This document shows positions 8,645 through 42,364 of a DNA stretch of 55,615 nucleotides, piece after piece (position 1 is the first letter of the stretch; each line of letters begins with the position of its first letter). This DNA comes from Clostridia bacterium. GTDB taxonomy: Bacteria; Bacillota; Clostridia; Oscillospirales; SIG627. The notes below the pieces were generated by a model. That model worked only from the letters and a program-made list of their open reading frames with translations. It searched no databases and was not told the origin of the DNA. Made by a program: the position numbers and the translations under genes. Location: the NCBI GenBank assembly GCA_017453605.1, contig JAFTEP010000149.1, positions 1 through 55,615 of the forward strand. Reading direction: 5' to 3'.

Positions 8645-8678
8645 TTCTTTTCCTTCTGTTTTGTCAATTTTTCCGTCG

Positions 8679-9611: not shown

Positions 9612-9633
9612 TATTCTTCCCCGAAAGCTTTTT

Positions 9634-9972: not shown

Positions 9973-10013
9973 GACTTTCCTCTCCGTTTTGTCAAGCTTT
10001 CCGCGGTCCCGCT

Positions 10014-10565: not shown

Positions 10566-10617
10566 ATACGTTCTCCTGTAGGTGATCGGGCGGTACATTT
10601 GTTATATTTGATAAAAA

Positions 10618-10932: not shown

Positions 10933-10937
10933 AACGA

Positions 10938-11090
10938 TTATATCTCCTTCTTTCCGAACTCTTCATCCGTCCATGTAAACGCCAGATGATCGTCGATATT
11001 TTTCCGACTTAAAAGGACAACGGTCTCGACGTTTCCCGTGCGGGGAAACATATCGAACAGCAGCGCCGTTTTCGTGACAAATCCGCTCGG
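10938..11090 (-). pseudogene. Displaced 3'-terminal fragment of an rlmD/rumA allele
   Basis: Hand translation gives GFVTKTALLFDMFPRTGNVETVVLLSRKNIDDHLAFTWTDEEFGKKEI*. Bases 11021..11090 repeat the 3' end of the intact rlmD (11737..11808), with about 5 substitutions and one 2-nt indel. Confidence 0.7.
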
Positions 11091-11680: not shown

Positions 11681-11707
11681 ATAAACCGATCCTCACTATG
11701 TGAATAA

Positions 11708-13054
11708 TTATTCTTTGTTTCTTAACAGCACAGCCGCCGTCTCCACGTTTCCCGTGCGGGGGAACATATCAAACAGCAGCGCCGTTTTCGTGACAAATCC
11801 GCGCTCCGCGAAGTGGGCGAGGTCTCTTGAGAGGGTCGCGGGATTGCATGAAACGTAGGCGAGGCGGTCGACGGAGGTTTTTGCGATCAGGTCGATGAAC
11901 TCATTCGTCGTGCCCTTGCGGGGCGGGTCGATGACGGCGGCGGTCGGCGAAAAATCGAGATCTTCAATCGCTTCTTTCGCGTCGGCGCAGATAAAGCGCG
12001 CATTTGTTATGCCGTTTGCGGCGGCGTTGCGGCGCGCGTTCTCAACGGCGTCCGGGACGACCTCTATCCCCACGACTTCCCTCACGCTGTCCGCCATAGT
12101 GAGACCTATAGTCCCCGTGCCGCAGTAGAAATCGGCGAGCACGTCGTCCGGGCGCAGGGCGAGAAGGTCTTTTGCGGCGGCGTAGAGTTCTTCGGCGCAG
12201 GCGCGGTTTACCTGATAAAAGCTCAGCGGCGATATCTCGAATTTCAGTTTTAAAAGCGTGTCCGTCAGCACCGCTTCTCCCGCGAGAAGGACGCATTTTT
12301 CGCCGAGGATCACGTTGTCGGGTCTCGGCTGAACGTTCAAAAACACGCTTTTTGCGCCGAACGAGAGAGCGAAAGAAACAAACTTTTCTTTCGGGAAGCC
12401 CTCTTCGCGTCTCAGGACCGCGCAGATCATCGTTTCTCCCCGGGCGTTTGTCCTGAGATACAAGTGCCTCGCCGTGCCGTTCGACGTCGTTTCGTCGTAG
12501 GGCTGAACGCCGTTTTCGTTGAGGAATTTTTCAAAGCCGTGCGCGATATCCGAAAAGAGGGGCGGCATGAGAGAGCAGACTCCGAACGGAACCGAGCGGT
12601 GCGAATTTTCGGCGTAGAAGCCGCAGAACGCCTCGCCCGTGCGCGATCTCGCGACGGGGATCAGCGCCTTGTTCCTGTAGCCCTCCGTCAGTGTCTTCTC
12701 CGGGAGCGGAACGACGAGCGAAGGATCGAGGGACGCCTTTCTGAACTCCGAGCGCACGTATTCCGTCTTGATCCTCGCCTCTTCGGCGTAGTCGAGGCTC
12801 GCGAAGGCGCAGCCTCCGCAGGCGGGATAAGCCCCGCATTTCGCCTCGCGTCGTGACGGGGACTTTTTCTTTATCTCTTTCCACTTCCCGACGCAGTACG
12901 CGGCGGCGGATTTTATCACCGTTATCTCTCCGAAGTCGCCCGGAAGCGCGTTCTTGACAAAGCACACCTTGCCGTCGATCCGGCAGACCCCGCAGCCGAG
13001 CATATTGACGTCGTCTATCGTCACGTCGAACACGCTGTTTTTTTCGGGAAACAT
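11708..13054 (-). CDS. rlmD: 23S rRNA (uracil-C5)-methyltransferase RlmD/RumA
   Basis: Start set at ATG 13054 (the upstream stop is 1 nt away). TRAM-like N-terminus, Fe-S cysteines CGAYPACGGCAF, SAM motif DFYCGTGTIG, and DPPRKG. Confidence 0.9.
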   Translation of the reverse strand: MFPEKNSVFDVTIDDVNMLGCGVCRIDGKVCFVKNALPGDFGEITVIKSAAAYCVGKWKEIKKKSPSRREAKCGAYPACGGCAFASLDYAEEARIKTEYVRSEFRKASLDPSLVVPLPEKTLTEGYRNKALIPVARSRTGEAFCGFYAENSHRSVPFGVCSLMPPLFSDIAHGFEKFLNENGVQPYDETTSNGTARHLYLRTNARGETMICAVLRREEGFPKEKFVSFALSFGAKSVFLNVQPRPDNVILGEKCVLLAGEAVLTDTLLKLKFEISPLSFYQVNRACAEELYAAAKDLLALRPDDVLADFYCGTGTIGLTMADSVREVVGIEVVPDAVENARRNAAANGITNARFICADAKEAIEDLDFSPTAAVIDPPRKGTTNEFIDLIAKTSVDRLAYVSCNPATLSRDLAHFAERGFVTKTALLFDMFPRTGNVETAAVLLRNKE

Positions 13055-13055
13055 T

Positions 13056-14081
13056 TCAGTCCTCCGTATAGACCCAGCGGCGCTGGATCGCGAAGCTGAC
13101 AAAGAACAAAGTCACGTCGACCAGGATCTTCCAGACCGTGTCGTGAAGCGGCAGGAGCGACAGGAGCGACACGAGGAAGGCGCTCGTGAACATCTGCGCG
13201 ACGAATAAAAGCGCGTACTTGAAGAGCTGTTTTTTGGTATCGCCCTTTTTATTGAAGCTCCATTTTTTGTTCAGCGTGAAATTCATCACTCCCGACACGA
13301 GCCTCGCGCAGACCGTCGCCGCAACGATGCGGTGCGGGTAAGCGCCGAGCAGGGAGTCGATGAGAGTGAAAAGCCCCAGATCCGCGACCGAACAGATCAT
13401 AGAGGACGCAGCGAACCTCAGCGGCTTTTTGTAGATCCTCAGGCTGTCCCTGACCGGGCGGAAGTGAGAGGTCGTGTTCCCCTTGTCGTAGACCGTCCCG
13501 ATCCGCACGCACTCGAACGGGATCTTTTTGTCCGCAAGATCGGTGAGAAAATTCATTTCGTATTCGTATCTGTCGCCCTCGGACAGCAAAGCGGCTTCAA
13601 AAAGATCCGCGGGGATGCCTCTGAGGCCCGTCTGCGTGTCCGAGCAGCCGCGCCCGGTGAGAAGACGGAAGAACGCCGACGTCAGAAAATTCCCGAACTT
13701 CGATCTTGCCGGAACGCCCCTGCCGCGAAGGTCTCTCGTTCCGAGAACGAGCTTTCCCGGAGCGACAAGCTCCGCGACCTTCAGCACGTCCTCTGTGCGG
13801 TGCTGACCGTCCGCGTCGACGGTGACGATCCCGCCGCAATCGGGCATTTTGTCTCTGACGAACGCGATCCCGGTCTTGATCGCGGCGCCTTTCCCGCGGT
13901 TTTTTTCGTGATGAAGCACGGTGCAGCCGTTTCTTTCGGCTTCACAAAAGATCTCCGCCCGGTCCGCGTCGCTCCCGTCGTCCACGACGACGATCTTTGC
14001 GTCGGTCGCTTCGTTCAGATCGGCGATCAGTTTATTCAGTTTTTCGTCCGGCTGATAGGCCGGGATCAGGATCACAAGCAT
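13056..14081 (-). CDS. Bifunctional glycosyltransferase family 2 / GtrA-like membrane domain protein
   Basis: LVILIPAYQPDEKL...VVVDDGSD...VTVDADGQH (GT2), followed by four C-terminal hydrophobic helices (GtrA-like). An alternative GTG start at 14126 is possible. Confidence 0.8.
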   Translation of the reverse strand: MLVILIPAYQPDEKLNKLIADLNEATDAKIVVVDDGSDADRAEIFCEAERNGCTVLHHEKNRGKGAAIKTGIAFVRDKMPDCGGIVTVDADGQHRTEDVLKVAELVAPGKLVLGTRDLRGRGVPARSKFGNFLTSAFFRLLTGRGCSDTQTGLRGIPADLFEAALLSEGDRYEYEMNFLTDLADKKIPFECVRIGTVYDKGNTTSHFRPVRDSLRIYKKPLRFAASSMICSVADLGLFTLIDSLLGAYPHRIVAATVCARLVSGVMNFTLNKKWSFNKKGDTKKQLFKYALLFVAQMFTSAFLVSLLSLLPLHDTVWKILVDVTLFFVSFAIQRRWVYTED

Positions 14082-17563: not shown

Positions 17564-20500
17564 TCATCCCTCCTGCTCGAGATAGCACCTGACGTAATGC
17601 CCGACGTTCACGATCCCGTCCTCCGGCTCCGGCTCGGAGTCGGCCGTAACGTGCTCGGTCACCTCGTATTCGTAGCAGTGGGTGAATTCGCTGACCCTGA
17701 ACGCCGTCTCGTAGACCGGGAGATCCTCGCCGCCGAACCACCAGCGGCTCACGTCGGGACCGTAGGAGCGGTCGGCGTAGTAGAGCTCGGTCCCATCCTC
17801 CGGCGTGCCCTTCTGATATATCTCCGGAGAAAAGAACGCCGAGAAGTCCGTGTATTCGTCGGTGCGGAAGTCGCTGACGGAAGACGAGCCGAGCGCTCCG
17901 CCGGTATATCTCTCAGACCAGTGCCAGTAGATGTATCCGGCAAGCTCGGTGTATATATATTCGACCTTTCTGTTCTCCCCGGAATACTCCTCGGGCGGGA
18001 AGTCCGAATAGCGCTTTGCGATGCTCGCGGACAGATCGAAGCCCTCGGGCAGCTCGGCGTACTGAGTCTCGCCCTCCTCGGTGACGATCCACATATCGCT
18101 CTCGCCGATCAGTCTCCAGCCCTCTTCGTTGACCTTCTGTGTGACGGTCTTCGAACTGACCCTGTCGTAGATCCACTGATCGCTGCCCTCGACGATCTCT
18201 GCTCCCTCCGGGACTTGCGTTATCAGGATCGGCTCCGAGACCTTCGCCCAGTGTGCGTAGAGGACTGTCGGCGTGTCGTAGGAAACGACGGTGTCCTTCT
18301 CGACCTTGACCCCGACTGTCGGATTCGAGAACCAGCCCTCGAACATATAGCCGTTCTTGACAGGCGTTTCGAGGAAGCCGAACCTCTTGCCGTAGGTGAC
18401 GGTCATCGTGGTGCGGCTCAGAGTGCCGCCCTGAGCGTTGAAGTAGATCTCGTAGGTGAGCGGAGTCCAGATCGCGTAGAGAGTGACCGTGCCGCCGTCG
18501 TCACTGAGGTCCCCGAGATCGTTGACCTCCTCGCAGTCGGCAAACTGCGCGGTGAGCGAGTCCGGTGTCAGGGACCAGCCGAGGAATTCATAGCCCTTTC
18601 TCGTGAAGCCGCATTCGTTGAGCGCCTTCGGGACCGAATAGACGTGATACGAGCTCTCCGTCGTTCCCGTTCCTCCGTTCGCGCTGTAATATATGGCGTA
18701 GGTGAGGGTCTGGACGGTCACTTTGCACGTCGCGGTCTTGCTTCCGTCCGCGGTGACTGCCTTTATCACGGCCTCGCCGTTCGCGACCGCGGTGACGATC
18801 CCGGTCGGAGTCACGGTCGCGACGTTCTTGTTGGTGGAGAGCCACGAGACCGCCGTGTTCGAAGCGTTTCTCGGCTCGATTATCGCTTCGAGGAGGAAGG
18901 AACCTCCGGCGTTGAGGGTTATCTCCTCCTCGGAGAGAGATACTCCGGTAACGGGGATCCTGTCGGGAGTGAGCTCTCCCAGCGAGACCGTCATCCCGAC
19001 CACGCTGCCGTACGGCAGGACGGTCCCGGGAGCCGGATCCTGAGACACGACCCGGTACATATCGTCGTCGGTGGTGTAGACGTATTCGCTCTCGGCGGCA
19101 AAACCGAGCTCTCCGAGCGTCGAAAGCGCCTGCTCTTCAGATACGCCCGCCAGATCGGGGACGGCGATCGCGTTGTCGAGGACGTGCACGGTGACGACCG
19201 TGCGGACGAGCCCGGTGTTGTCCTTGAGAGTCACCTTCGCGTCGCCGATCGAGACGCCCGTGAGAGTGCCGGAAACGACCGAGACCACCGATTCGTCGGA
19301 GCTGAGCCAGATGAGCTGCGACTTTTCGAGCTCCTTCGGAAGCACAGTCACGGCGGGAGTCACGCTCTCGTCCTTCAGGATGCTGATCTCGGTGCGGTCT
19401 ACTATGATGGATTCGATGCGGCGGGTCGAATCGCGCTGATCCGCGCTCCCGACGAGGAGCCAGACCTGCTCTCCGGGAGCGGCGGTCTCCCCGGCGCGCA
19501 CGCTCTGGGAAATGACCTTGCCGACCTTTCCCGAATCGAAAGCGACGGCCTTCTGAACGCTCAGACCGTGATTTTCGAGGAGCTTTTTCGCCTGCTCGAA
19601 GTTTTTGCCGACAAGATCGATGAGCGTCACGTTCCCGTCGGCGTCGGTATTGAGTTTGCGGTTTTCAAGAAGTATCTGGGCGACCGTCGCCGGGTCTGTC
19701 TTCGTGGCGAAAAGGATCGTCAGGCGCGTGTAGAGCACCGCGCTGAGCGCGATCATCGCGATGACGGCGAAAAGCCCGATGAGCGCCGCGCTGCTGCGCT
19801 TCTTGTTGAGCTTTTCGACGGCTTTGACGTTCTCGCCGTCGTATCCGACCAGCGCCGTGTCCTCGTCCGCTTTAAGAAGAGCTTTCTGGAACTGATCGAG
19901 GGTCCTGAAGCGGCGGGACGGATCCTCGCTGCATCCGCGGGCGCAGATCGCCTCCATCCGCCCCGAGAGGCTGAACAGCTTGCGGGCGACGGCGCAGACG
20001 GAATAGATCTCGTCGGACATCTTTCCGACGGGGTCCTTTTCGCTCCCCGGCGCGGCGAACTCGCCGTCCGGCAGACCGAGCTGCGGGATTCCCGTGTCAC
20101 CGAGCCTGAACTCCCCCGCGGAATCGACGAAGACGTTCGAAGGCTTTATATCACGGTGCAGGATCCCCGCCCTCTCGAAGCAGGCGAGGGCTCTGGACAT
20201 CGCGACGCAGAACCTGACCGCGGCGTTCTTGTCGGGCGGATTGTTTTTGAGGTGTTCCTCGAAGGGCGTCAGAAGCTCGCTTCTGATATAGAACGTGTAT
20301 CCGCCCTTGCGGCGGATCGTTTTGAAATCCTCCAAAAAAACGACGTTGTCCCTGCCGCGCATCTCCCTGATGAGAGAAAGCCGTCTGTTGAGCCCGGAGG
20401 CGATCCTGTGGAGCCATCTGTCGGCGGGAACGTCGTCGGGGCGCGACTTCTCAAGCTCGGCGAGGGGATGCTTTTCCTCGTCGGGTATGCGGATTATCTT

Positions 20501-20641
20501 TGAGGCGCTCAGAAATTTTTCGTCCATCTCGACGCGGCTCTCGAGGTATACCTCGCCGTACAGACCGTGTCCGAGTTCTCTCTCGAATTCGCGCTCCGCC
20601 CAGAAATCTATGAGCTGATTGTTTTGCTTCTTTTCTTCCAT
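17564..20641 (-). CDS. Membrane Ser/Thr protein kinase with PASTA-like, Big_2 and Listeria-Bacteroides-repeat ectodomains
   Basis: 1025 aa. GHGLYGEVY, HRDIKPSNV, one TM (AALIGLFAVIAMIALSAVLY), two PASTA-like units, two Big_2-like units, and two GY(E/M)F(L/E)GW repeats. The C-terminal ~230 aa match no family I recognise. Confidence 0.85.
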   Translation of the reverse strand: MEEKKQNNQLIDFWAEREFERELGHGLYGEVYLESRVEMDEKFLSASKIIRIPDEEKHPLAELEKSRPDDVPADRWLHRIASGLNRRLSLIREMRGRDNVVFLEDFKTIRRKGGYTFYIRSELLTPFEEHLKNNPPDKNAAVRFCVAMSRALACFERAGILHRDIKPSNVFVDSAGEFRLGDTGIPQLGLPDGEFAAPGSEKDPVGKMSDEIYSVCAVARKLFSLSGRMEAICARGCSEDPSRRFRTLDQFQKALLKADEDTALVGYDGENVKAVEKLNKKRSSAALIGLFAVIAMIALSAVLYTRLTILFATKTDPATVAQILLENRKLNTDADGNVTLIDLVGKNFEQAKKLLENHGLSVQKAVAFDSGKVGKVISQSVRAGETAAPGEQVWLLVGSADQRDSTRRIESIIVDRTEISILKDESVTPAVTVLPKELEKSQLIWLSSDESVVSVVSGTLTGVSIGDAKVTLKDNTGLVRTVVTVHVLDNAIAVPDLAGVSEEQALSTLGELGFAAESEYVYTTDDDMYRVVSQDPAPGTVLPYGSVVGMTVSLGELTPDRIPVTGVSLSEEEITLNAGGSFLLEAIIEPRNASNTAVSWLSTNKNVATVTPTGIVTAVANGEAVIKAVTADGSKTATCKVTVQTLTYAIYYSANGGTGTTESSYHVYSVPKALNECGFTRKGYEFLGWSLTPDSLTAQFADCEEVNDLGDLSDDGGTVTLYAIWTPLTYEIYFNAQGGTLSRTTMTVTYGKRFGFLETPVKNGYMFEGWFSNPTVGVKVEKDTVVSYDTPTVLYAHWAKVSEPILITQVPEGAEIVEGSDQWIYDRVSSKTVTQKVNEEGWRLIGESDMWIVTEEGETQYAELPEGFDLSASIAKRYSDFPPEEYSGENRKVEYIYTELAGYIYWHWSERYTGGALGSSSVSDFRTDEYTDFSAFFSPEIYQKGTPEDGTELYYADRSYGPDVSRWWFGGEDLPVYETAFRVSEFTHCYEYEVTEHVTADSEPEPEDGIVNVGHYVRCYLEQEG

Positions 20642-28836: not shown

Positions 28837-30354
28837 ATGCCGGAAAACAAGATCGCGCTGAACTGGGACGGGGACGCGGAGTTTTTTTTCCTGAAATACT
28901 CAGGGGTCTTTGATGATCCTGAAAATATTAAAGAAAAGGCGAAAGCCTATATAGACCGATACTACCGGGACCGCGGGATCGGGGACATCTTTTTCAACAT
29001 ATTCGCGCAGACCTCCGTCACGCCCTCGCGCGTGTTCACGGACCGCGTGACTAAACTTCACCAAAAAGAAGAAAACGGGACAAAGGTGGACTATTCCGGT
29101 CTCGAGTACCTCGCCCTGCCCGCCGAATGCCGCGAGAAGTACGGCGTCGGACTTACGGAAACGTGGATAGATCATTGCCGGGAGGCCGGGATACGCCCGT
29201 GGATCTCTTTCAGGATGAACGACAACCACTTCCGCGACGAAAAGACCTGTTTTCTGAGGGGCGACTTCTTCTACGAGGCGCTCGAAAACGGCTGGATCCT
29301 CGGAGACGGCTACCGCTCGGGATACCGCAACTGGGACTACGCCGCGAAGCCCGTGCAGGACAAAATGATCGCCTATATCTCGGAACAGCTCGGCGCTCTC
29401 GACGTCTTCGGGATAGAGCTCGACTTCATGAGAGAGCCGAAATGCCTGAAATATCTTTCTCCCGGCGACCACTGCGGCGTGATCAACGGCTTTATGGAGC
29501 GCGCCAAGGACGCCGTGAAAAAACAAGAGAAGATAAGAAAACACCCGATAAAGATCGCGGTCCGCGTGCCGAGAGACCCCATGCTTTCAAAGCGCATCGG
29601 CTTCGACGCTCTTTACTGGGCGAAAAACTCCCTCGCCGACGTCGTGATCCCCTCCTCGCACTGGATCTGCAACGACACCGGGATGCCGATCGCGGACTGG
29701 GTGAAAATGCTCTCCCCTTACGGCGCCGAAGTCTGGGCGTGCATGGAAATGAACCTGCCCGGCAGGCTGACCGTGGATCTTGAGGCGGCGAAGGCGCACA
29801 CCGCGCAGTACGCCGCTCAGGGCAGCGCGAAAACGTATATCTTCAATCTCTATCACCCGTATTTCGAGCGCCACTGGGCAAACGACGGCTCCGTCTGGGT
29901 CCGGCCTCCGCGCGCCGAAGAAACCCTGAAGATATGGGAGACCGCCGGGGATCCCGAAAAGTGCCGCCGCGGCGTGAGACGGCATATCGTGACCGAAGAG
30001 ATCTTCGGCTTCCAAGAGATCAAGCCGCGCTGGGCTCCCCTGCCAATGAAGATCGGCGAGGGGAAGATCCTCGAGGTACAGACGGGACCTATAGAAAAAG
30101 GGGACGAAGTCACGGTGTATTTCGTCTCGACCGGCGCGTCGTCGAACGATCTCAACGTGAGTCTCGACGGAGAAAAGTGCGTTCCGGTAAAGAATACGGA
30201 TGCGGATATCATAAGGGCGGGGACCGATGAAAAGACCGTTCTTGCTTACAGGGCGCCTGACGCGAAAAGGGACGGCGCGGCGCGCGTTCTGTGGATCACG
30301 GGAAAAGCAGAAGCCGAAATAACCTACGCGGAAATAAAGATCGACGCTCACTGA
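28837..30354 (+). CDS. Hypothetical protein, possibly glycoside-hydrolase-like TIM barrel (GHL10-like) with C-terminal beta-rich domain
   Basis: 505 aa. AAGGAG RBS. WISFRMNDNH and FGIELDFMREP resemble GHL-type TIM barrels. This assignment is weak. Confidence 0.4.
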   Translation: MPENKIALNWDGDAEFFFLKYSGVFDDPENIKEKAKAYIDRYYRDRGIGDIFFNIFAQTSVTPSRVFTDRVTKLHQKEENGTKVDYSGLEYLALPAECREKYGVGLTETWIDHCREAGIRPWISFRMNDNHFRDEKTCFLRGDFFYEALENGWILGDGYRSGYRNWDYAAKPVQDKMIAYISEQLGALDVFGIELDFMREPKCLKYLSPGDHCGVINGFMERAKDAVKKQEKIRKHPIKIAVRVPRDPMLSKRIGFDALYWAKNSLADVVIPSSHWICNDTGMPIADWVKMLSPYGAEVWACMEMNLPGRLTVDLEAAKAHTAQYAAQGSAKTYIFNLYHPYFERHWANDGSVWVRPPRAEETLKIWETAGDPEKCRRGVRRHIVTEEIFGFQEIKPRWAPLPMKIGEGKILEVQTGPIEKGDEVTVYFVSTGASSNDLNVSLDGEKCVPVKNTDADIIRAGTDEKTVLAYRAPDAKRDGAARVLWITGKAEAEITYAEIKIDAH

Positions 30355-30383
30355 GAAGGGCTCCATATCGTTTTACAATGGTG

Positions 30384-30412
30384 TTGACAAAGAGCGCGAT
30401 TTGATATATACT
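30384..30412 (+). promoter_or_regulatory. Sigma-70-type promoter
   Basis: TTGACA, 17 nt, TATACT, 55 nt upstream of ATG 30467. Confidence 0.65.
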
Positions 30413-30466
30413 TATATAAGCGCTTATCCGACCTCAAAACCGAAAACGGCGCGCAAGGAGCAGACA

Positions 30467-31570
30467 ATGAACAGCTTAGAAGCTTTTGAAATGATGAGAA
30501 GGGTCATTTCCCGCTATCCCATAAAGGGCGAGATCGCGGCGGTGAACCTCATCCCCACCGGGCACATAAACGATACCTTCTGCGTCGCGGTCATCGAAAA
30601 CGACGCCGCGAACAAGTATATCGCGCAGAGGATCAATACCTACGTCTTCAAAAAGCCCGATCAGGTCATGAAGAACATCCAGACCGTCGCCCAATATCTC
30701 GACAAGAGGGGGATAAAGGAAAAGTGCGACATCCGCCGCTACATCAACGCGCTCGACGGCAATAACTACGTCGTCGAAGACGGCTGTTTCTGGCGGCTCT
30801 GCAGATACGTCGAGAACTCCGTCAGCTACGACACCGTAGAGAACGAAAAAGTCCTCACCAACGCCGGCTACGCCTTCGGACGCTTCCAGGCGATGCTCGC
30901 GGGGCTCCCGATGGACAGCCTTTACGAGACGATCCCCGATTTCCACAACACGCGCGTCAGGATGGACAACCTCTTCAGGTCCTACGAAAAAAACGAGGCG
31001 GGAAGAGCCGGAGAAGTCGCCGGTGAAATGGAGTTTTTTGCCGCAAACCGCGCTCTCTGCTCGCGCCTTGTCGAAATGCTCGAGGCGGGCGAGCTGCCGC
31101 TGAGGGTCACTCACAACGACACCAAATACAACAACATCCTCATGGACAGAACGACCGGCGAGCCCCTGTGCGTCATCGACCTCGACACGATAATGCCCGG
31201 GCTCTCGCTCTACGATTTCGGAGACGCGATAAGATTTGCGGCAAACACCGCAGCCGAAGACGAGACGGATCTTGATAAAGTCTCCCTCAATATGGACTAT
31301 TTCAAGGCGTTCACCAAGGGCTTTCTTGCGGCCTGCGGCGACAGCCTCACAAAAAACGAGCTCGACAACCTCGCGCTCGGCGCCTTCGTCATCACCGCGG
31401 AGATCGCCTCGAGATTCCTGGCGGACTATCTCGACGGCGACAAGTATTTCCACATCCACCGTCCCAAACACAACCTCGAAAGGGCAAGATGTCAGATCAG
31501 ACTCGCGCAGGATATGCTTTCAAAACTCGATAAAATGCGCGAAGCGGTTTATTCATTTGTGAAAAACTGA
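30467..31570 (+). CDS. Aminoglycoside-phosphotransferase-fold sugar kinase, N-acetylhexosamine 1-kinase (NahK)-like
   Basis: Start moved from TTG 30401, which lies inside the promoter, to ATG 30467 (AAGGAG RBS). Catalytic loop VTHNDTKYNNILMD and IDLDT Mg site. Confidence 0.65.
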   Translation: MNSLEAFEMMRRVISRYPIKGEIAAVNLIPTGHINDTFCVAVIENDAANKYIAQRINTYVFKKPDQVMKNIQTVAQYLDKRGIKEKCDIRRYINALDGNNYVVEDGCFWRLCRYVENSVSYDTVENEKVLTNAGYAFGRFQAMLAGLPMDSLYETIPDFHNTRVRMDNLFRSYEKNEAGRAGEVAGEMEFFAANRALCSRLVEMLEAGELPLRVTHNDTKYNNILMDRTTGEPLCVIDLDTIMPGLSLYDFGDAIRFAANTAAEDETDLDKVSLNMDYFKAFTKGFLAACGDSLTKNELDNLALGAFVITAEIASRFLADYLDGDKYFHIHRPKHNLERARCQIRLAQDMLSKLDKMREAVYSFVKN

Positions 31571-31574
31571 AAAA

Positions 31575-32078
31575 ATGAAGCTTAACGGCAGGACAAAAAG
31601 TCTCATCCGCTGGATCCCCGCCCTGATATTGATGGTCGTCATCTTTTCGTTCTCGGCTCAGGACGCCCCGACCTCCTCAAAGGTCAGCACCGAAGTGGTC
31701 GAACTGCTCGACCCCATCGTCGAACCGATAACCCGCAAGATGACCCCCGTCCAGAAGCAGGACTTCAAGACCTCGTTTCACGACACCGTCAGAAAATCGG
31801 CGCACTTTTTGATATTCCTGCTCCTCGGAGCGGCGTTCATGTTCGCGCTCGCGCCGTACAACTTCAAAGGTCTTCTCTGTCATTTTATAAGCGTCGGTCT
31901 CAGCTTCGTCTACGCCTGCACCGACGAGTTCCACCAGAGCTTCGTTTCGGGCAGAGGTCCGGCTTTCACGGACGTTCTGATCGACACGGCCGGGGCTCTC
32001 ATCGGCGTTCTGATCTTCTGGGGCGTCCGGACGCTGGTAAAAAAGATCAAAAACAAAAAGAAAACAAAAAAAGCCTGA
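31575..32078 (+). CDS. VanZ family membrane protein
   Basis: 167 aa, 4-5 TM helices. RKSAHFLIFLLLG and DEFHQSFVSGR motifs. Confidence 0.85.
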   Translation: MKLNGRTKSLIRWIPALILMVVIFSFSAQDAPTSSKVSTEVVELLDPIVEPITRKMTPVQKQDFKTSFHDTVRKSAHFLIFLLLGAAFMFALAPYNFKGLLCHFISVGLSFVYACTDEFHQSFVSGRGPAFTDVLIDTAGALIGVLIFWGVRTLVKKIKNKKKTKKA

Positions 32079-32092
32079 ACTTTATTAGCCGT

Positions 32093-32125
32093 CCCCCGCG
32101 TGAATCCGCGGGGGAAAGTTTTTTA
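32093..32125 (+). terminator. Rho-independent terminator of vanZ
   Basis: CCCCCGCG / CGCGGGGG stem, 6-nt loop, then AAAGTTTTTT. Confidence 0.75.
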
Positions 32126-32409
32126 TCGGGCTGTCAAAGCGCTCACGCGCACGTCCTTCTTCGCCTTGGCTTCCGCAAGAACGGGAACCTCAGCTTCACC
32201 CGATACTTCGGCGGGCGTTCTCTTCTCTTCGGAGTTCTCCTCCGAAACGTTCTTTTCCGGCGCGGTGTTCATTTCTTCCGCACCTCTCTTTTTTTCTTCC
32301 ATTTCTTTTTTCCTTTCTGTTCATGGAATTTGTTTTCTCGCGGCTCGCTTCTCGCTCCCCGCTCCTCGAGTATATCAACTTACCCCGACATATTCCGTCG
32401 GGGTTGAAC

Positions 32410-32452
32410 AAAAAAAATTCCCTGCAAGTCTGGCTTACCCAAACTTGCAGGG
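32410..32452 (-). terminator. Rho-independent terminator closing the toxin/immunity cassette (hairpin copy A)
   Basis: Minus strand: CCCTGCAAGT-13 nt-ACTTGCAGGG followed by AATTTTTTTT. Confidence 0.75.
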
Positions 32453-32492
32453 AAACTGAGATCAAATAATTCCGGATAAATACACCATTTAT

Positions 32493-32984
32493 TTAGTCAG
32501 ATATGAGAACTTTATAGACAAAGCACGACCTCCAATCGAGTTTGCCGGTTATGCTGTTTTCTAAAACAAAAGCGATGTTTTCTACATTATCAAGCAAACC
32601 GTTGCGATTTAGGCAACTCTTTATCCTATCATCCTCGCTTCTATCTTTGATTAGCGACTCTGCAAGATCACAAACCACGTCTATACCTAAAAACTCAAGA
32701 TGATATCCAAATAGATTCTCTAATGGTGAATATGAAAAAGCAATAATTTCACAATTCACCTTTTCTTTCCTAAAAAACTTATAGTAACTCAAAAGCAATT
32801 TAAACTGCTCCAGATCGTATGAATAACTTTTTTTCGGATTGCAGGTATCATCCAAAAAATTAAAATACTGATCCAACAGTTTCTTATAGTTACTTTTAGT
32901 GTCTTTAGTTAAAAAATCATGAACCTCTATTGAACGATCTATACCTCTGTATGACCAAGTTATAGAAACAATATCAAACCGCAT
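32493..32984 (-). CDS. Putative cognate immunity protein of the Rhs-CT toxin (no recognised family)
   Basis: 163 aa from ATG 32984 (GGAGAT RBS); the track version starts at TTG 33059. Lies immediately downstream of the toxin ORF, is very AT-rich, and has no signal peptide or TM segment. Confidence 0.5.
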   Translation of the reverse strand: MRFDIVSITWSYRGIDRSIEVHDFLTKDTKSNYKKLLDQYFNFLDDTCNPKKSYSYDLEQFKLLLSYYKFFRKEKVNCEIIAFSYSPLENLFGYHLEFLGIDVVCDLAESLIKDRSEDDRIKSCLNRNGLLDNVENIAFVLENSITGKLDWRSCFVYKVLISD

Positions 32985-33045
32985 TTTTATCTCCAACCCC
33001 AAACAAGAATAGTATGATTTTTTGCTGTATACTAATACTAAATAT

Positions 33046-34002
33046 TCAAGATTTGCCAATTAGTTTCATTAAAAAATCCCACGCATCTTTAAATATTTGA
33101 ATATGACAATTATTCAATTCACCGTGCCCACCAAATAAATGAATATGCCATGTATAACCATTATGTGGAGAGTCTAAACTAATTTCAAAACCAAAACGTT
33201 TTGCGAGTTCATATATTTTTATTGCCCAACTGTAAGGTAATATAATAAGTTTAGAGTTAAGCAATCGAGCAAGTGCAATAAATTTTGAGGAATCCGTTGC
33301 TAATGTGAACGGATTTATTCCTAAAAACTCCATTGATTTCACAAACGTCTTAGCACCAAGTTTATCAAAGAGTTTAAAAACAGTTGATGGGTTTGCTTTC
33401 AGATACGTTGCTATTAGTTTAGTAACTAAAGCTCCAGCAAACCATCCGATTATAGCTCCACCAATTACAACGCCTGTTCGAATTGCCCAATACTTCCATC
33501 CACTACTATATCCAATACTTTTTGCAAACCAGTCGCCAAAAAACCATCCTACAATAGCTCCTATTGCTGCGCAAATAATATTAATAGCCGCCATACCTGA
33601 CTCGTCTATCATATTTATTGGGTTGTTTTCTGAATACTCAAAACAATTATAACAAACAAGCGTTTCTCCAAGACCAATATTTGTAATTTCATCCCCGTTG
33701 ATAAACCTGCCCACCACAGGGTCATAGTATCTGGACTGGAGGTAGTAGAGGGATATATCGTTGTCAAAGTAGTAGGATCTGTAGCGGTAGGGGTTGACGG
33801 TGGAGATAGAGCATAAGGAGGTGTCGGAGAGCACGGTGCAGACGCCCCAGGCGTCGTATCTGTACTTTGCGACGTCGCTTCCGTTGGCGTCGGTGATCGC
33901 GATCACGTCGCGCGGCGGAACTTTCCTTCTTCGTACTATAATTGTACACTTTTGCTCACGAATTGTCAACGGTTCGACAGCGGCTCGCGCCTGCTCGCTC
34001 AT
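33046..34002 (-). CDS. Orphan RHS repeat-associated core fragment fused to a C-terminal polymorphic-toxin domain
   Basis: DANGSDVAKYRYDAWG...NPYRYRSYYFDNDISLYYLQSRYYDPVVGRFINGDE...NCFEYSENNPINMIDESG is the C-terminal end of the RHS-associated core. No YD repeats lie upstream. The start is uncertain: ATG 34002 or GTG 33906. Track residues 1-29 upstream are not credible. Confidence 0.65.
   Translation of the reverse strand: MSEQARAAVEPLTIREQKCTIIVRRRKVPPRDVIAITDANGSDVAKYRYDAWGVCTVLSDTSLCSISTVNPYRYRSYYFDNDISLYYLQSRYYDPVVGRFINGDEITNIGLGETLVCYNCFEYSENNPINMIDESGMAAINIICAAIGAIVGWFFGDWFAKSIGYSSGWKYWAIRTGVVIGGAIIGWFAGALVTKLIATYLKANPSTVFKLFDKLGAKTFVKSMEFLGINPFTLATDSSKFIALARLLNSKLIILPYSWAIKIYELAKRFGFEISLDSPHNGYTWHIHLFGGHGELNNCHIQIFKDAWDFLMKLIGKS
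33941..33969 (-). promoter_or_regulatory. Near-consensus sigma-70 promoter internal to the track ORF
   Basis: Minus strand: TTGACA, 17 nt, TACAAT. It is followed by AAGGAAAG (33928..33921) and an in-frame GTG at 33906. Confidence 0.55.
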
Positions 34003-34010
34003 ATAGAAAT

Positions 34011-34045
34011 CCCCGGCAAGTCTGGGAAGCCCAAACTTGCCGGGG
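34011..34045. repeat. Hairpin copy B, homologous to the terminator hairpin at 32420..32452
   Basis: CCCCGGCAAGT-13 nt-ACTTGCCGGGG. It matches 27 of 33 positions of copy A. The two stem differences are compensatory (T..A versus G..C). Confidence 0.7.
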
Positions 34046-34363
34046 GATGGGGATAATCGGCCACGTACACCACAACTAATCAGAGACACTCTTTAAGATT
34101 CTCCCAAAATGATGTGCTTACCTTTTATCAATTCAATCAAAGATTAAAAATTGAACCGATCAAGAGTATTACGATTTGTTAGTTGTAAGATGCAATAATG
34201 CAATAAACCGTTATAACAAGTTTACCTTTTTATGTGACAGATACCTTAGAATTTTTTCCTTCGCTCCGCTCAGGATGACAAGGGGGGATGACCCGTTTTC
34301 GCAGACGCTCGGGCGGCGGCGAAAATCTGACGCTTCGAAAATGCGGCAATCCCGCATTCCGAT

Positions 34364-36643
34364 TCACCCTTCCCTGAACGCCTTTATCCTCGCGGCGATC
34401 TCGTCCGGTTTGAGGCAGAGGACGGGCTCCTCCCAGTGCGGGGGATAGAGACCCGAGAAGGCGCCGTCGGCGTATCTGTCGCCGAGGAGCAGGGCGAAGC
34501 CTCTGTCGCTCTCTCTTCTTATCACCCTTCCTACCGCCTGCAGGACGCGGTTGAAGCCCGGGAGCAGATAGCTGAACGCTTTTCCGTCGAGCCCGGAATG
34601 GGAGAAATAGAATCCAGCCGCCTCCCGTTCCTCGGCTGGGGGAGGCATACCGGTGCCGACCGCGACCGCTCCGTCGAGAGAGGCGTTTTCGAGCTCGATC
34701 CCCTCCGCGAAGAGCCCTCCGAGCACGCACAGGGCGACGGTGCTCCCGCCTCCGTTTTCGAGATCGGCGATGAATTTTGCCCTCTCGGAATGATTCATCG
34801 AGCTTCGCTGGACGAGAAAGCGGCTTTTGGGGAGTTTCAGTCTGAGAAGCCTTTCGGCGGATCTTAAATACTCGAACGAGGGAAAGAAAACTATGTATCT
34901 GCCGTTTTGAGCGCATGCGGCGGCGACGAGCGAGGCGAGCCTTGCGAGCGACGCGCCGCGGTGAGACACGGAGGTGTTGAGCGGAGAGGCGATCAGGAGA
35001 AGATTCGACGGCTCGAACGGCGAGGGATAGCTGACGAAGCGGTCGGCGGCTGTGTTCCCGAGGACCTTCGAGAAATACTCCTCGGGCTGCAGCGTCGCCG
35101 AGAAGAAGACCGCCGTCCCGAACGAGTCGGCGTATTCCCTTATATGCTCCGACGGGTCCGCGAGGATCAGCGAAACGCCGCCGTCGTCCGAGACCGAGCG
35201 GACGTAGCCGCGCGAAAAATCCGCGTCCGCGGCGCAGAATGCGCGAAGCGCCATGTATATATCGAGCTGTGCGTCGTCGAAATCGCCGCGCTTTTTTATA
35301 AGCTTCATCAGCTTTTTTGAAAGCTTCGCCGCGTCGCGGTCGGGGGAAAGCGAAAGTCTGTCCGCGCCCGAATCGAGAGCGCGCTCGTTTGAAATGAAGT
35401 GCTCCTCGATTTTTTTCACGGCGTCCGCCTCTTCGTCCGTCAGCGGTGTGAACGCCTGTTCTGTAAGCCTGTTCAGCTTGGGATCAAGCCGCGCGGAGAA
35501 GAGATCTCTCACCCTGTCGGGCAGATCGTGAGCCTCGTCGGTGAGGACGACGGATCTCGAATCGGCAAGCGACGTCAAAGCCGCCTTGCGGTCGAAAACG
35601 AAGTTGTAGTCGCAGATAATGACGTCTGCAAAAGAGGCGGCGTAAAGGGCGAGCTCGTACGGGCAGACCGCGTGCTTCGCGGCGACCGAAACGATCCGCT
35701 CGCGCGTCAGAGAGCCGGGGGTGCCGGCGAGTTCCATCGCCGCTCCGAAAAGCCTCTCGCTCATGTTCTCCCAGAGACGGCAGGCGCCGCCTATACAGCG
35801 GGGCGTTCCCGCGGCGCAGGCGCTCTGCCGGGAAAACATCACCGCCGCCCGGTGGATCCCATCCCCGGAAAGCCTGTCGCAGGCCTGGGCGATCTGCCTC
35901 TGCACAGAGCCCTTCGGCGTCAGAAAGAACACGCGCGAGCATCTTCCCGCTTCGAGCGCGCGGAGAGAGGGATACAAAAACGAGAGAGTCTTGCCTATCC
36001 CTGTCGGCGCGCAGGCGAGAAGGTTGGTCCGGGTCTTTATCGCCTCGAAGCAGTCCTCCATGAGCTGTCTCTGCCCGTCTCTCAGGGATCCGAACGGGAA
36101 TTTGACCCTGCCGGAGGCGGGATAGATCCTCCCGAAAAGCCTCACGGCTTTATCGAGCGCGGCTTCGAGCGCGGCGTCAAGCTCCGACGCCGGGACGTTT
36201 TTGGTGAAAAATCTCATCCTGCCGCAGGACGGGTCGTAAACGATCTTTCTCAGGGTAACGCCGGGCAGATTGCGCTCTCTGCAGAGCAGAGCGGCGAACA
36301 TCTTCGCCTCGAAAAACGGCGTGGGATCAAAAATTCCCGGCTCCTCGAAATCGCCGGGGCAGAGAGAATCCACGGTGAAGCCGCCGTCCTTTTCAAAATA
36401 CCCGGCGCAGGAAAAACCGATCTCGAAAACGAACCTTTCCGTCTCTTTCACGAGGCTCAGCGGCTCTCTTGAATAGTCCACGCCCGCCTTTTTCGCAGCG
36501 CTGATGAGGCGCGCGAGAGCTTTCGAGATGTCCGGCGCGCTCTTTGAGATCCCTCCGTCCTTCACAACGGCAAAAAGACTCACAAAGCGTTCGCCCGTGA
36601 GTCCGATCTTTCGTTTTGACGCCGTATCGAAGGTTTTTTCCAT
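34364..36643 (-). CDS. DinG/XPD-like (Rad3 family) ATP-dependent DNA helicase with ~230-aa N-terminal extension
   Basis: Start set at ATG 36643 (TGATG overlap with the upstream ORF). Walker A APTGIGKT, DEAH box (TDEAHDL), Cys cluster CAAGTPRCIGGAC...CPYE, and a C-terminal helicase domain (GRVIRRESDRG). Confidence 0.8.
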   Translation of the reverse strand: MEKTFDTASKRKIGLTGERFVSLFAVVKDGGISKSAPDISKALARLISAAKKAGVDYSREPLSLVKETERFVFEIGFSCAGYFEKDGGFTVDSLCPGDFEEPGIFDPTPFFEAKMFAALLCRERNLPGVTLRKIVYDPSCGRMRFFTKNVPASELDAALEAALDKAVRLFGRIYPASGRVKFPFGSLRDGQRQLMEDCFEAIKTRTNLLACAPTGIGKTLSFLYPSLRALEAGRCSRVFFLTPKGSVQRQIAQACDRLSGDGIHRAAVMFSRQSACAAGTPRCIGGACRLWENMSERLFGAAMELAGTPGSLTRERIVSVAAKHAVCPYELALYAASFADVIICDYNFVFDRKAALTSLADSRSVVLTDEAHDLPDRVRDLFSARLDPKLNRLTEQAFTPLTDEEADAVKKIEEHFISNERALDSGADRLSLSPDRDAAKLSKKLMKLIKKRGDFDDAQLDIYMALRAFCAADADFSRGYVRSVSDDGGVSLILADPSEHIREYADSFGTAVFFSATLQPEEYFSKVLGNTAADRFVSYPSPFEPSNLLLIASPLNTSVSHRGASLARLASLVAAACAQNGRYIVFFPSFEYLRSAERLLRLKLPKSRFLVQRSSMNHSERAKFIADLENGGGSTVALCVLGGLFAEGIELENASLDGAVAVGTGMPPPAEEREAAGFYFSHSGLDGKAFSYLLPGFNRVLQAVGRVIRRESDRGFALLLGDRYADGAFSGLYPPHWEEPVLCLKPDEIAARIKAFREG

Positions 36644-40249: not shown

Positions 40250-40339
40250 TTTAGTCCGCGCCGGGGGCGGGGCTCCTCCCCGCCCCCGTGAGCATATTAT
40301 TATAACGACGGAGGTGGAGTTTTTTTATTTTTTGACGTC

Positions 40340-40472
40340 AGCGCCGGGTCCCACGCAGGATGACGAGGCGGGAGGAGGATCGAACCATTCGGCGGGTGCC
40401 TCCCCGGACCCGAAGGGGTCCGCAGCAAAGGATCAAAACGGCAGGCGACTGCCCCACAAAGTCCTTTGCGCC
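40340..40472 (+). ncRNA. glmS ribozyme: glmS glucosamine-6-phosphate-activated ribozyme
   Basis: AGCGCCGGG...GAUGACGAGGCGGGAGGAGGAUCGAACCAUUCGGCGGGUGCCUCCCCGG...GCAAAGGAU...GUCCUUUGC carries the conserved AGCGCC cleavage site, GACGAGG, AUCGAA, UUCGGCGGxUGCCUCCC and the P4 stem. It sits directly 5' of glmS. Confidence 0.85.
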
Positions 40473-40543
40473 CTTTTATCAAGCGGTCTGCCGATCGACA
40501 GACCGCCGGGCAGTTATGCCCGGTATATGGAGAATATAACAAA

Positions 40544-42364
40544 ATGTGTGGAATAGTAGGATACGTCGGGGACAGACAGGCGCAGGAAGTGCTGATCGAA
40601 GGGCTTTCGAGGCTCGAATACCGCGGTTACGATTCCGCCGGAGTCTGCATAGCGGACGCGGGCGGCAGGATGAGGATCAAAAAGAGCAAGGGCAGGCTGG
40701 CTGTCGTCGCCGATATGCTCAAAGCCTCCCCCATCCCGGGAAACACCGGCATCGGTCACACGCGCTGGGCGACACACGGCGAGCCCTCGGATGAGAACTC
40801 TCACCCCCACAAGAGCCGCCGCGTCGCGATAGTTCACAACGGCATCATCGAAAACCACCGCGCCCTCAGAGAAAAGCTCGTCAAGAAGGGCTACGGCTTT
40901 CTGTCTCAGACCGACACGGAGGTCGCCGCGCACTTGATAGACTATTACTATTCGGGCGATCCGCTCGAAGCGCTGACAAAGGCGGCGAACGCCCTCGAGG
41001 GCTCGTTCGCGCTCGCCGTGATGTTCGATTCCAAGCCCGGGGAGATATACGCCGTGCGCTCGCAGAGCCCTCTGGTCATCGGTCTCGGCGAGGGCGAGAA
41101 CTTCATCGCCTCGGACATCCCCGCGGTGCTGAAATACACGCGCGAATACCTCCTGCCCGCGTCGGGGCAGATCGCGAAAGTCACAAAAGACTCGGTCGAG
41201 GTCTTCGGCTTCGACGGCGAGAGCGCCGAGGCGCAGAAGATCCACGTCGACTGGGACACGGAGGCGGCGGAAAAGGGCGGCTTCGATCACTTCATGCTCA
41301 AGGAGATCAGCGAGGAGCCGAGGGCTCTTGGCGACACTCTCGGACCGCGCGTCACGGGCGGAAAGGTGCGTCACGAGATATTCAAGCTCACCGACCGCGA
41401 GATCAGGGGCCTGAGAAAGATCCATATAGTCGCCTGCGGGACCGCGATGCACGCCGGGATGATCGGCAAAAAGCTGATAGAAGCCTGGTCGAGAGTGCCG
41501 ACCGACGTCGATATCGCCTCGGAATACAGATACAGGAACCCGATCCTTTCCGCGGACGATCTTGTGATCCTGATAAGCCAGTCGGGAGAGACCGCGGACA
41601 CTCTCGCCGCGCTGAGGCTCGCCAAGAGCAGGGGCGCCTACACGCTGGCGGTCGTGAACGTTGTCGGCTCTTCGATCGCGCGCGAGGCGGACGACGTCTT
41701 ATACACCTACGCCGGGCCGGAGATCGCGGTCGCGAGCACGAAGGCGTATTCGGTCCAGCTTCTGGCGATGGTCATGGTCGCATTACGGATCGCGGACGCC
41801 AAAAAGACACTGCCGCCCGAGGAGATAGCAGGCACGATAAACTCGCTTCAGACCCTGCCGGAGCTGGTGAGAGAGCAGACTCAGCGCTCGGGGGAGATAA
41901 AAGAGATCGCCAAGGGGCTCGAAAAAACGCGCAATATGTTCTATATCGGCAGAGGCATGGACTACGCGCTCGCGCTCGAGGGCGCGCTGAAAATAAAGGA
42001 AATCTCGTATATCCACTCAGAGGCGTACGCCGCGGGAGAACTCAAGCACGGAACGATCTCCCTGATCGAACAGGGCAGTCCGGTCGTCGCGATCGCGACG
42101 GTCTCAGACATCCTCGACAAGACAGCCGCCAATATCCGCGAGGTCGCCAGCCGCGGCGCGAAGGTGACGCTGATCTGCCGCGAAAAGGACGTGGGACGCT
42201 TCGATCCCTGCGACTCAGTCATCACTCTTCCCGACGTGCCGGACCTTCTCATCCCGATCGTCGCGATCACGCCTCTGCAGCTTCTGGCGTATCACGCCGC
42301 GGTCCTTCGCGGCTGCGACGTCGACAAGCCGAGAAACCTCGCGAAGAGCGTCACGGTGGAATAA
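40544..42364 (+). CDS. glmS: Glutamine--fructose-6-phosphate aminotransferase (isomerising)
   Basis: Start set at ATG 40544 so the protein begins MCGIVGY (Ntn Cys). Two SIS domains. C-terminal KPRNLAKSVTVE. Confidence 0.95.
   Translation: MCGIVGYVGDRQAQEVLIEGLSRLEYRGYDSAGVCIADAGGRMRIKKSKGRLAVVADMLKASPIPGNTGIGHTRWATHGEPSDENSHPHKSRRVAIVHNGIIENHRALREKLVKKGYGFLSQTDTEVAAHLIDYYYSGDPLEALTKAANALEGSFALAVMFDSKPGEIYAVRSQSPLVIGLGEGENFIASDIPAVLKYTREYLLPASGQIAKVTKDSVEVFGFDGESAEAQKIHVDWDTEAAEKGGFDHFMLKEISEEPRALGDTLGPRVTGGKVRHEIFKLTDREIRGLRKIHIVACGTAMHAGMIGKKLIEAWSRVPTDVDIASEYRYRNPILSADDLVILISQSGETADTLAALRLAKSRGAYTLAVVNVVGSSIAREADDVLYTYAGPEIAVASTKAYSVQLLAMVMVALRIADAKKTLPPEEIAGTINSLQTLPELVREQTQRSGEIKEIAKGLEKTRNMFYIGRGMDYALALEGALKIKEISYIHSEAYAAGELKHGTISLIEQGSPVVAIATVSDILDKTAANIREVASRGAKVTLICREKDVGRFDPCDSVITLPDVPDLLIPIVAITPLQLLAYHAAVLRGCDVDKPRNLAKSVTVE

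Follow-up and report, generated by a model that had tools for sequence, protein, structure and literature searches.

In the 55,615-bp window analyzed here, which is the entire contig of a metagenome-assembled genome (MAG) named 'Clostridia bacterium' at NCBI, we found a cassette on the reverse strand in which a fragment of an Rhs core runs into a variable C-terminal toxin region, with a break in base composition between core and toxin tip, and the cognate immunity gene follows (coordinates are collected in table 1). We concluded with good confidence that this cassette is a solitary, self-expressed Rhs toxin/immunity module, dissociated via C-terminal displacement at the DPxxGRF motif, which would serve for immunity and as a reserve tip and would not deliver its toxin. 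No intact upstream rhs gene with an identical core was found within the window. The initial annotation, made from the sequence alone, had described the locus as an exchanged polymorphic-toxin tip stored with its immunity gene as an orphan. This interpretation proved largely right: the immunity gene is conserved with the same toxin in five of five loci, a step in guanine-plus-cytosine (GC) content separates core and tip, and the same toxin is found behind full-length Rhs genes (L001, L006 and L007) and on a full-length Rhs protein (P0132).

The maximal open reading frame (ORF) of the Rhs-core/toxin gene comprises the last ~105 residues of an Rhs core and then a 181-amino acid (aa) C-terminal region, and it is followed by the 163-aa ORF of the immunity gene; this agrees with the initial annotation, which had assigned to it only the end of the core, an unrelated domain of ~180 aa and a small downstream ORF. 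The Rhs_assc_core model (TIGR03696) matched residues 78-166 significantly (E=7.7e-18, 64.8 bits against a cut-off of 32.5), with the full model (1-76) covered. In tblastn searches, the core fragment shared 49-50% identity with the ends of the cores of both full-length and orphan Rhs proteins, and its blastp matches had E values of 1e-20 to 1e-50. The YYDPVVGRF motif was present, and the second motif, the equivalent of PxxxxDPxGL, read P-INMI-D-ES-G-M, in which D162 and G165 are invariant in the family and Pro is replaced. The Pfam RHS_repeat family (PF05593) remained below threshold in the 347-aa ORF (E=0.089, 13.7 bits against a cut-off of 22), which indicated that no bona fide YD repeat is left in it. 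Multiple YD/RHS repeats (PF05593, PF25023) were not found, and the window thus holds a fragment of an Rhs protein, not a full member. A tblastn search of the window with an Rhs protein of at least 1805 aa and three orphan proteins of related loci matched 33595-33909 only, with a weak extension to 34023, so that the rest of the window is without Rhs sequence. In the 347-aa ORF, no Pfam match was obtained for an N-terminal trafficking domain (signal peptide, PAAR, LXG, DUF6531 or similar), and Pfam scans of the 40 large ORFs of the window revealed no type VI or type VII secretion system, integrase or transposase. The absence from the window of YD repeats, of a full-length rhs/wapA gene and of secretion-system genes, claimed earlier, was thereby confirmed. 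The earlier description of the locus held in its statements on the sequence, to which we added two corrections. First, the DNA upstream of the cassette (34046-34280) is also AT-rich. Second, the 347-aa ORF begins with ~60 codons that do not resemble Rhs and that overlap a hairpin and a promoter-like site; the stretch after ATG 34002 retains vestigial Rhs similarity only, with an 8-residue gap relative to the homologues.

Base composition changed sharply within this ORF. In 200-nt windows, GC was 0.28-0.40 over 32400-33700, 0.55-0.57 over 33700-34000 and ~0.6 in the flanking genes, and the lowest 1200-nt GC of the whole contig (0.332) fell in the cassette (z=-6.4 compared with the rest). GC at third codon positions (GC3) was 0.75-0.90 at codons 61-120 and 0.15-0.25 from about codon 130 onward; it amounted to 0.22 in the C-terminal region and 0.335 in the immunity gene, compared with 0.71-0.83 in the neighbouring host genes. 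At the codon level the switch lay between TAT122 and ATT135, inside YYDPVVGRFINGDE, which places the step within the ORF at ~33700 (codons ~122-135, DPVVGRF). The computed profile was thus not flat, and the change that had been noticed by eye, from a host-like core to an AT-rich remainder, was substantiated. These results showed that the AT-rich tip and the immunity gene are compositionally foreign and are joined to host-composition core codons at YYDPxxGRF, the junction at which homologous recombination would be expected to displace a C-terminus (Jackson 2009, PMC2935791). We take the module to have been acquired from a lower-GC bacterium.

The product of the downstream ORF was 31-41% identical (E 8e-6 to 5e-45) to ORFs located directly after the same toxin domain, and such a homologue followed the toxin domain directly in five of five loci (L001, L002, L003, L006 and L007). 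Because the homologue is conserved downstream of the same toxin in these five other loci, we concluded that the ORF, which lies 61 nt after the toxin gene, is the cognate immunity gene. The ORFs after two proteins that share the N-terminal part of the toxin region, a helix module described below, and end in another terminal domain were unrelated to the 163-aa ORF. Thus, the immunity gene changes with the terminal domain and not with the helix module, as expected for an immunity that is specific to the terminal domain; the pairing of toxin and immunity gene rests on this co-occurrence and co-variation. The immunity protein has no transmembrane segment (maximum Kyte-Doolittle value 1.05) and is therefore presumably cytosolic, and no hydrophobic segment was present in any immunity candidate of the compared loci. 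It matched no family in Pfam or NCBIfam and no entry in the PDB; a PADLOC match (E=0.0057) was weak and was treated as noise.

Many relatives of the toxin were found in gut metagenomes, with 45-65% identity over the core and the C-terminal region. In L001, L006 and L007, toxin and immunity homologues reside in classical orphan-module arrays behind a long or full-length Rhs gene, and in L003, L004 and L005 the homologue belongs to an array of orphans only, and no Rhs gene occurs within 10 kb of it. The same toxin domain also forms the C-terminus of P0132, a 1764-aa Rhs protein with RHS repeats and DUF6531. In addition, solitary short genes composed of Rhs core, helix module and toxin, with a downstream small ORF, were observed at 743-2555 of L090/L091 and at 6001-7680 of L092; one has AbiJ and ParA/ParB as neighbours, the other a serine recombinase, a RES-domain protein and a type I restriction-modification system. 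Orphan modules detached in this way may move with mobile elements. Given these solitary or orphan-only relatives (L003, L090, L092), the solitary state of the cassette is not unique. In L002, a ~7-kb orphan Rhs block appeared to be tandemly duplicated (430-7100 and 7438-14017), with the gene sizes 227-551-99-232-81 repeating.

The C-terminal region is bipartite, and its terminal 88 aa constitute a candidate for a new toxin activity. In this domain H56, H58 and H70 are invariant, and H50 and W55 are nearly invariant. The AlphaFold2 (AF2) model of the isolated domain was confident (predicted local distance difference test, pLDDT, 93.7) and showed the topology alpha-beta-alpha-beta-beta-beta-alpha. 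Foldseek searches with this model gave a best E of 0.73 with TM<=0.36 against the PDB and a best E of 0.73 against BFVD, and the whole C-terminal region yielded no Foldseek match. Sequence searches of the PDB gave no match to the toxin domain, and a PDB profile search reached a best E of 1.3. Residues 260-347 had no Pfam match in 43 family members, and the toxin domain matched nothing in Pfam, NCBIfam or PADLOC; PHROGs matched the Rhs core at residues 101-188 only. A profile search with the fragment alignment A3 returned only 3 short proteins and was uninformative. The isolated domain retrieved 24 clusters from 1.84 billion representatives, the three weakest of which looked spurious. A His-dependent or metal-dependent hydrolase or nuclease is our guess for its activity. 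HicA-like, HNH-like and LAS-metallopeptidase-like identities had been considered on the basis of motifs, found no support and were relegated to speculation, and the resemblance to HicA or a double-stranded RNA-binding domain and to a beta-alpha-beta-beta-beta (vicinal oxygen chelate-like) arrangement was one of topology only.

Between the core and this domain lie two hydrophobic helices with a glycine-zipper pattern, GxAAINxIxAAIGxxxGWxFGD ... GWKYWAIRxGVxxGGAxIGWFAG ... YLxxNP ... LGIN, with hydrophobic peaks at residues ~163-190 and ~205-230; the AF2 model of the whole C-terminal region had a pLDDT of 90. This helix module matched no Pfam family, and it was 45-64% identical (E 3e-13 to 2e-28) to segments of P0044, P0043, P0049, P0053, P0039 and P0102. 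The proteins sharing it end in Ntox35, in a HINT-containing tail or in other unclassified domains. Because the same helices precede different terminal domains, we argued that they are a delivery element and that the His-cluster domain is the toxic part. A different assignment is conceivable, in which the helix pair is itself the toxin and forms a depolarizing pore, as in Tse5-CT or EsxX, with the His-cluster domain as an accessory. Tse5-CT of a Pseudomonas aeruginosa Rhs protein is a glycine-zipper membrane-depolarizing toxin. The two strongly hydrophobic, Gly-rich helices of the cassette (GxxxG-like AIGAIVGWFFG and GGAIIGWFAG) are nearly invariant in the family, some members of which give weak Pfam glycine-zipper matches, and EsxX combines a glycine-zipper toxin with a soluble cytoplasmic immunity protein (PMC12744356). 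We nevertheless consider a pore unlikely, since the same helix pair precedes unrelated terminal domains, the immunity gene varies with those domains and not with the helices, and no membrane immunity protein is encoded. Ntox35, one of the partners of the module, is a predicted RNase of the BECR (barnase-EndoU-colicin E5/D-RelE) fold (PMC3482391), which we counted in favour of a cytoplasmic action of the partner toxins. A natural deletion variant was noted in P0074 (199 aa), in which the first glycine-zipper helix is fused straight to the PHGGYTWHFH...HIQV motif; it is without the second helix and the first half of the toxin domain and is probably a decayed copy.

The cassette is bracketed by two related hairpins, with which the limits drawn in the initial annotation (32420-34045) coincide. 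The two copies, which lie 1592 nt apart in direct orientation, share 82% identity over 38 nt (32415-32452 in the downstream copy) and show one compensatory change in the stem; the gene-sense RNA of the upstream hairpin, which ends 8 nt before ATG 34002, folds with -33 kcal/mol (z=-7.1). Both are weaker on the other strand, where the U.G wobble turns into a C.A mismatch. There are only two copies in the window, and an exact-pattern search detected none in genome or metagenome contigs; L001 and L002 also contain no copy. We rejected the idea of a repeat that is dispersed or mobile, since no other copies were found and a different hairpin occupies the same position in L003, which points to module terminators. 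An integron gene cassette with attC sites was also rejected, given the near-perfect 16-bp stems with U-tracts and the lack of a tyrosine recombinase among the 40 ORFs. L003, from a Ruminococcaceae MAG, contains 56-nt hairpin-containing repeats at 9930-9985, 11399-11454 and 13077-13132; one precedes each orphan module and one follows the last, in the same layout as in the window and with a different hairpin sequence. In that array, the hairpin repeat continues into 300 nt of core DNA, which gives a direct repeat of ~370 nt in total (84-87%). In light of this layout, we think that the upstream hairpin of the cassette terminates either the helicase gene or a module that formerly preceded the cassette, and that it is not the end of a mobile element.

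The degenerate 5' part of the ORF contains a near-consensus sigma-70-type promoter-like site. Sites with at least 11/12 matches are rare, with 5 in the whole window compared with 0.35 expected from local shuffles, and ORF starts follow closely after three of the other four (the fourth, at 55566, has no gene assigned). Given these figures, the site at 33969-33941 is probably a real promoter. ATG 34002 precedes it, and translation of the maximal ORF therefore probably does not include its first ~60 codons. Flanked by one hairpin on its upstream side and by another with a U-tract on its downstream side, the cassette has the appearance of an autonomous transcription unit, from which, judged from the sequence, at least the immunity gene would be expressed. 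Promoters inside orphan rhs genes are known from earlier work (PMC7043789). These features would also suit an internal role, in which a leaderless toxin fragment and the immunity protein would be made from the internal promoter and the cassette would act mainly inside its producer, as a type II toxin-antitoxin (TA)-like or addiction module: the truncated ORF contains the promoter and, past it, in-frame GTG codons that could serve as starts, the unit is made autonomous by a terminator at either end, main and orphan Rhs toxins of Salmonella provide a precedent (PMC7043789), and related solitary modules occur in mobile or defence-island contexts (L090, L092). The candidate starts, in turn, have weak ribosome-binding sites, and a toxin dependent on two membrane helices for its entry would not necessarily be active from the inside. 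Such a role would be compatible with a solitary Rhs module, and we regard it as a lesser possibility.

Independent assemblies bear on the integrity of the locus. An identical immunity protein (P0124) is encoded on two ENA contigs from other samples, L008, which is 100% identical to window 33853..29734, and L009, which is 99.92% identical to window 33853..31343. Thus, in three samples the sequence from 33853 downstream is 99.9-100% identical, with all ORFs and conserved histidines intact, and the identity of L008 and L009 confirmed the downstream side of the locus, including the toxin region, the immunity gene, the hairpin, the 59-aa ORF, VanZ and APH. This conservation also bears on the idea that the cassette is a functionless, decaying remnant left by the deletion of a former rhs locus at this site. 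The gene is 5'-truncated, its Rhs homology is degenerate before residue 60 with the 8-residue gap, an ORF-free AT-rich spacer lies upstream and there is no rhs gene in the window, all of which would suit a remnant. Both cassette ORFs, however, are full length compared with their homologues and retain all invariant residues, the sequence is preserved in the three samples, and the predicted promoter and terminator are intact; we therefore consider decay very unlikely.

Both contigs stop exactly at 33853, inside the core and 140 nt past the composition switch. The name of L008 contains k141_, which we take to be MEGAHIT naming for a final k of 141; on k=141, its terminal k-mer corresponds to 33713-33853, and 33713 falls in codon 126, at the composition switch. 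The simplest reading of the shared end is a de Bruijn branch: in those samples, the core-coding DNA upstream of 33714 would occur a second time, joined to a different toxin tip. Such a second copy would be the recombination partner for which the initial annotation had suggested a search. Exact-protein look-ups with the helicase (two starts), EngB and the 262-aa protein identified no second assembly covering 33854-34364. Contig ends within the core are also what would be expected at a repeat if our contig were an assembly chimera, in which the side with toxin, immunity gene, 59-aa ORF and VanZ and the side with helicase, hairpin and core came from two Rhs loci sharing the GC-rich core; the toxin region would in truth belong to a full-length rhs gene or to a different array, and the lack of a further assembly confirming 33854-34364 fits with this. 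We consider a chimera quite unlikely, as the repeat would extend over at most ~225 nt (33714-33937), which is usually bridged by paired reads, and as the upstream hairpin is a diverged copy of the hairpin after the immunity gene, in a layout shared with the genuine orphan array L003. Even in a chimera a 5'-truncated core fragment would follow the helicase, so that some orphan Rhs module would be present at the site; the orphan status of the cassette depends on the upstream join of this contig.

On these grounds, we proposed the following model for a solitary Rhs module. The upstream hairpin would insulate the cassette, the promoter at 33969-33941 would drive it and the hairpin with U-tract at 32454-32418 would end transcription, so that the immunity protein, and perhaps also a leaderless toxin fragment, would be made. 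Because the locus encodes neither an Rhs shell nor an export domain, the toxin is not deliverable from it. The module would instead protect against neighbours that deploy the same toxin on a full-length Rhs protein such as P0132, and would provide a reserve tip, recombinable onto a resident rhs gene via the host-like core DNA (~140-225 nt). As part of a full-length protein, the C-terminal region would be set free behind the D-x-x-G motif (NNPINMIDESG), the glycine-zipper helices would insert in the target membrane and bring the His-cluster domain to the cytoplasmic side, and this domain would act as the toxic moiety in the cytoplasm, where the cytosolic immunity protein would neutralize it.

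Several observations weigh against this model. The join of core, hairpin and helicase upstream is carried by a single contig, ours. The in-frame codons GTG 33906 and GTG 33834 past the promoter have poor ribosome-binding sites, and promoter, start codon and terminator are consensus predictions. The 55.6 kb contain no full-length rhs gene that could be the partner of the proposed reserve tip. Glycine-zipper toxins with soluble cytoplasmic immunity exist (EsxX/ExiAB, PMC12744356). Finally, a search of genome contigs with the helicase C-terminus found no empty-site relative, and in metagenome contigs the relatives of the APH neighbour were at most 60% identical and showed no synteny; without an empty-site relative, the insertion event and its borders are drawn from base composition only.

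The architecture of the cassette resembles that of known systems. Like the orphan rhs-CT/rhsI modules of E. coli, Salmonella and Dickeya (PMC2935791; Poole 2011, PMC3150448; Koskiniemi 2014, PMC3967940), it joins a core fragment, of variable length in those modules, to a variable toxin tip, and an immunity gene comes next; the GC signatures of core and tip differ, the junction is at the conserved core end, and recombination into a full-length gene is the model. Unlike these enterobacterial orphans, the cassette resides in a Gram-positive-type Clostridia MAG with no type VI secretion genes in the window, is not located behind an intact rhs gene (the 21-33 kb to either side contain none), has related terminator hairpins at both ends and carries an unclassified toxin domain. 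In Salmonella Typhimurium, main and orphan Rhs toxins form type II TA modules from internal promoters (Starsta 2020, PMC7043789); the cassette likewise has a promoter in the rhs frame upstream of the toxin part and possible non-ATG internal starts, but its promoter is predicted, lies in a degenerate 5' stub and not near the PxxxxDPxGL motif, and host and toxin are unrelated. With the WapA/Rhs YD-repeat toxins of Bacillota (B. subtilis; S. suis, PMC12704120) the cassette shares a Gram-positive lineage and a downstream cognate immunity gene. A further common trait is that the Rhs/YD shell of the WapA family delivers polymorphic C-terminal toxins without a type VI system; the window, unlike WapA, has no shell, signal peptide or wall-binding part. 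The WapA toxins characterized to date are, as far as is known, tRNases that lack a membrane module of two helices. Like CdiA, the cassette has a bipartite C-terminal region, in which an exchangeable N-terminal module is combined with different toxin domains and immunity is specific to the terminal domain; the entry domains of CdiA, however, are soluble and exploit inner-membrane proteins of Gram-negative targets, and entry here would instead appear to involve hydrophobic glycine-zipper helices. Gly-rich hydrophobic C-terminal helices and the possibility of a soluble immunity protein are shared with Tse5-CT and with EsxX of S. aureus (PMC12744356), to which no sequence relation was detectable; unlike in these, the helices are common to different terminal domains, with which the immunity co-varies.

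An orphan Rhs tip with an immunity gene and a GC step is textbook material, and the cassette as such adds little to it; its interest lies in the undescribed toxin domain and the shared helix module, in an architecture that is itself known. The locus provides a clean example from high-GC gut Clostridia, in which Rhs biology has barely been studied, of a module that is detached from any rhs gene and apparently wired for its own expression, which fits with orphans being kept for immunity or TA-like functions. The toxin family is small, with ~20 clusters at 50% identity among the 1.84 billion representatives, and is confidently modelled without a structural or sequence neighbour. The shared two-helix module offers a testable hypothesis for how Rhs toxins of Gram-positive bacteria cross the target membrane. 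A more far-reaching and less probable reading is that a separable, undescribed and exchangeable glycine-zipper membrane-entry module is combined here with an 88-aa four-histidine toxin domain that has no fold match in the PDB, and that hairpin-bracketed orphans form a mobile or expressed unit. If so, clostridial Rhs proteins would carry different cytoplasm-acting toxins (this domain, Ntox35 and HINT-linked tails) across the Gram-positive membrane, and hairpin-bracketed orphan modules with their own promoter may spread independently of rhs genes.

Table 1. Features of the Rhs toxin/immunity cassette and its upstream border (window positions)
Feature	Position	Strand	Remarks
Truncated Rhs-core/toxin ORF	33046..34089	-	Maximal ORF, 347 aa, GTG start
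Candidate starts of the Rhs-core/toxin gene	ATG 34002, GTG 33906, GTG 33834	-	GTG 33834 is NCBI's 262-aa call (P0001)
Rhs core fragment	33595..33909	-	Residues 61-165, DVIAIT...YRYDAWG via YYLQSRYYDPVVGRFINGDE to NNPINMIDESG
High-GC3, host-composition part of the core fragment	33714..33937	-	GC3 0.75-0.90; putative homology arm to another rhs copy
Two-helix glycine-zipper transmembrane module and linker	33313..33597	-	Residues 165-259
Terminal 88-aa toxin domain	33049..33312	-	Residues 260-347, PH-x-G-Y-x-W-H-I-H ... H-I-Q-I
Cognate immunity gene	32493..32984	-	163 aa, ATG 32984, GGAG ribosome-binding site
Promoter-like site, sigma-70 type	33941..33969	-	TTGACA-17-TACAAT, 11/12 match, in the degenerate 5' part of the ORF
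Upstream hairpin	34011..34045	-	16-bp stem, 3-nt loop, weak U-tract, terminator-like
Downstream hairpin and U8 tract	32418..32454	-	Intrinsic terminator closing the cassette; fold -28.9 kcal/mol, z=-7.2
AT-rich ORF-free spacer	34046..34280	-	GC 0.35-0.40, stops in all three frames

The cassette sits alone between the DinG-like helicase gene (stop at 34364) and a small ORF with the VanZ gene. The Pfam scans of the large ORFs revealed housekeeping and metabolic genes only, and the genes of the window include the DinG-like helicase, EngB, Lon, GlmS, VanZ, an APH-family kinase and MetH. The upstream spacer (~235 nt), which separates the helicase stop from the cassette, gave no blastn or tblastx match to any related locus and no Rfam family, and is possibly the decayed remnant of an earlier module. 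At its edge, just past the helicase stop, a GC-rich motif, GTCATCCTGAGCGGAGCGAAGGA, occurs as a single copy in the window (34257-34279, reverse strand). On the other side, the cassette terminator is followed by a Lys/Glu-rich 59-aa ORF (32123-32302, reverse strand) and then by a bidirectional terminator at 32092-32115; the ORF is annotated as a gene in contig L009 and had no match in Pfam, PADLOC or PHROGs.

Elsewhere in the window, the second-lowest GC patch of the contig lies at 10500-11700 (0.33-0.42 in 300-nt windows), and an ORF within it (11009-11680, reverse strand) matches the N-terminal DUF1016 (YhcG-like) domain only and may be foreign or truncated. A 1025-aa protein encoded at 17564-20641 on the reverse strand combines a Ser/Thr kinase with PASTA repeats, Big_2 and Listeria-Bacteroides (Flg_new) repeats, and its extracellular tail is unusually long for a PASTA kinase. 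A glmS ribozyme (RF00234, 72 bits, E=1.2e-14) was detected at 40329-40479 on the forward strand, immediately before the GlmS ORF (40466-42364), whose listed TTG start it slightly overlaps; the true glmS start is therefore probably located further downstream.

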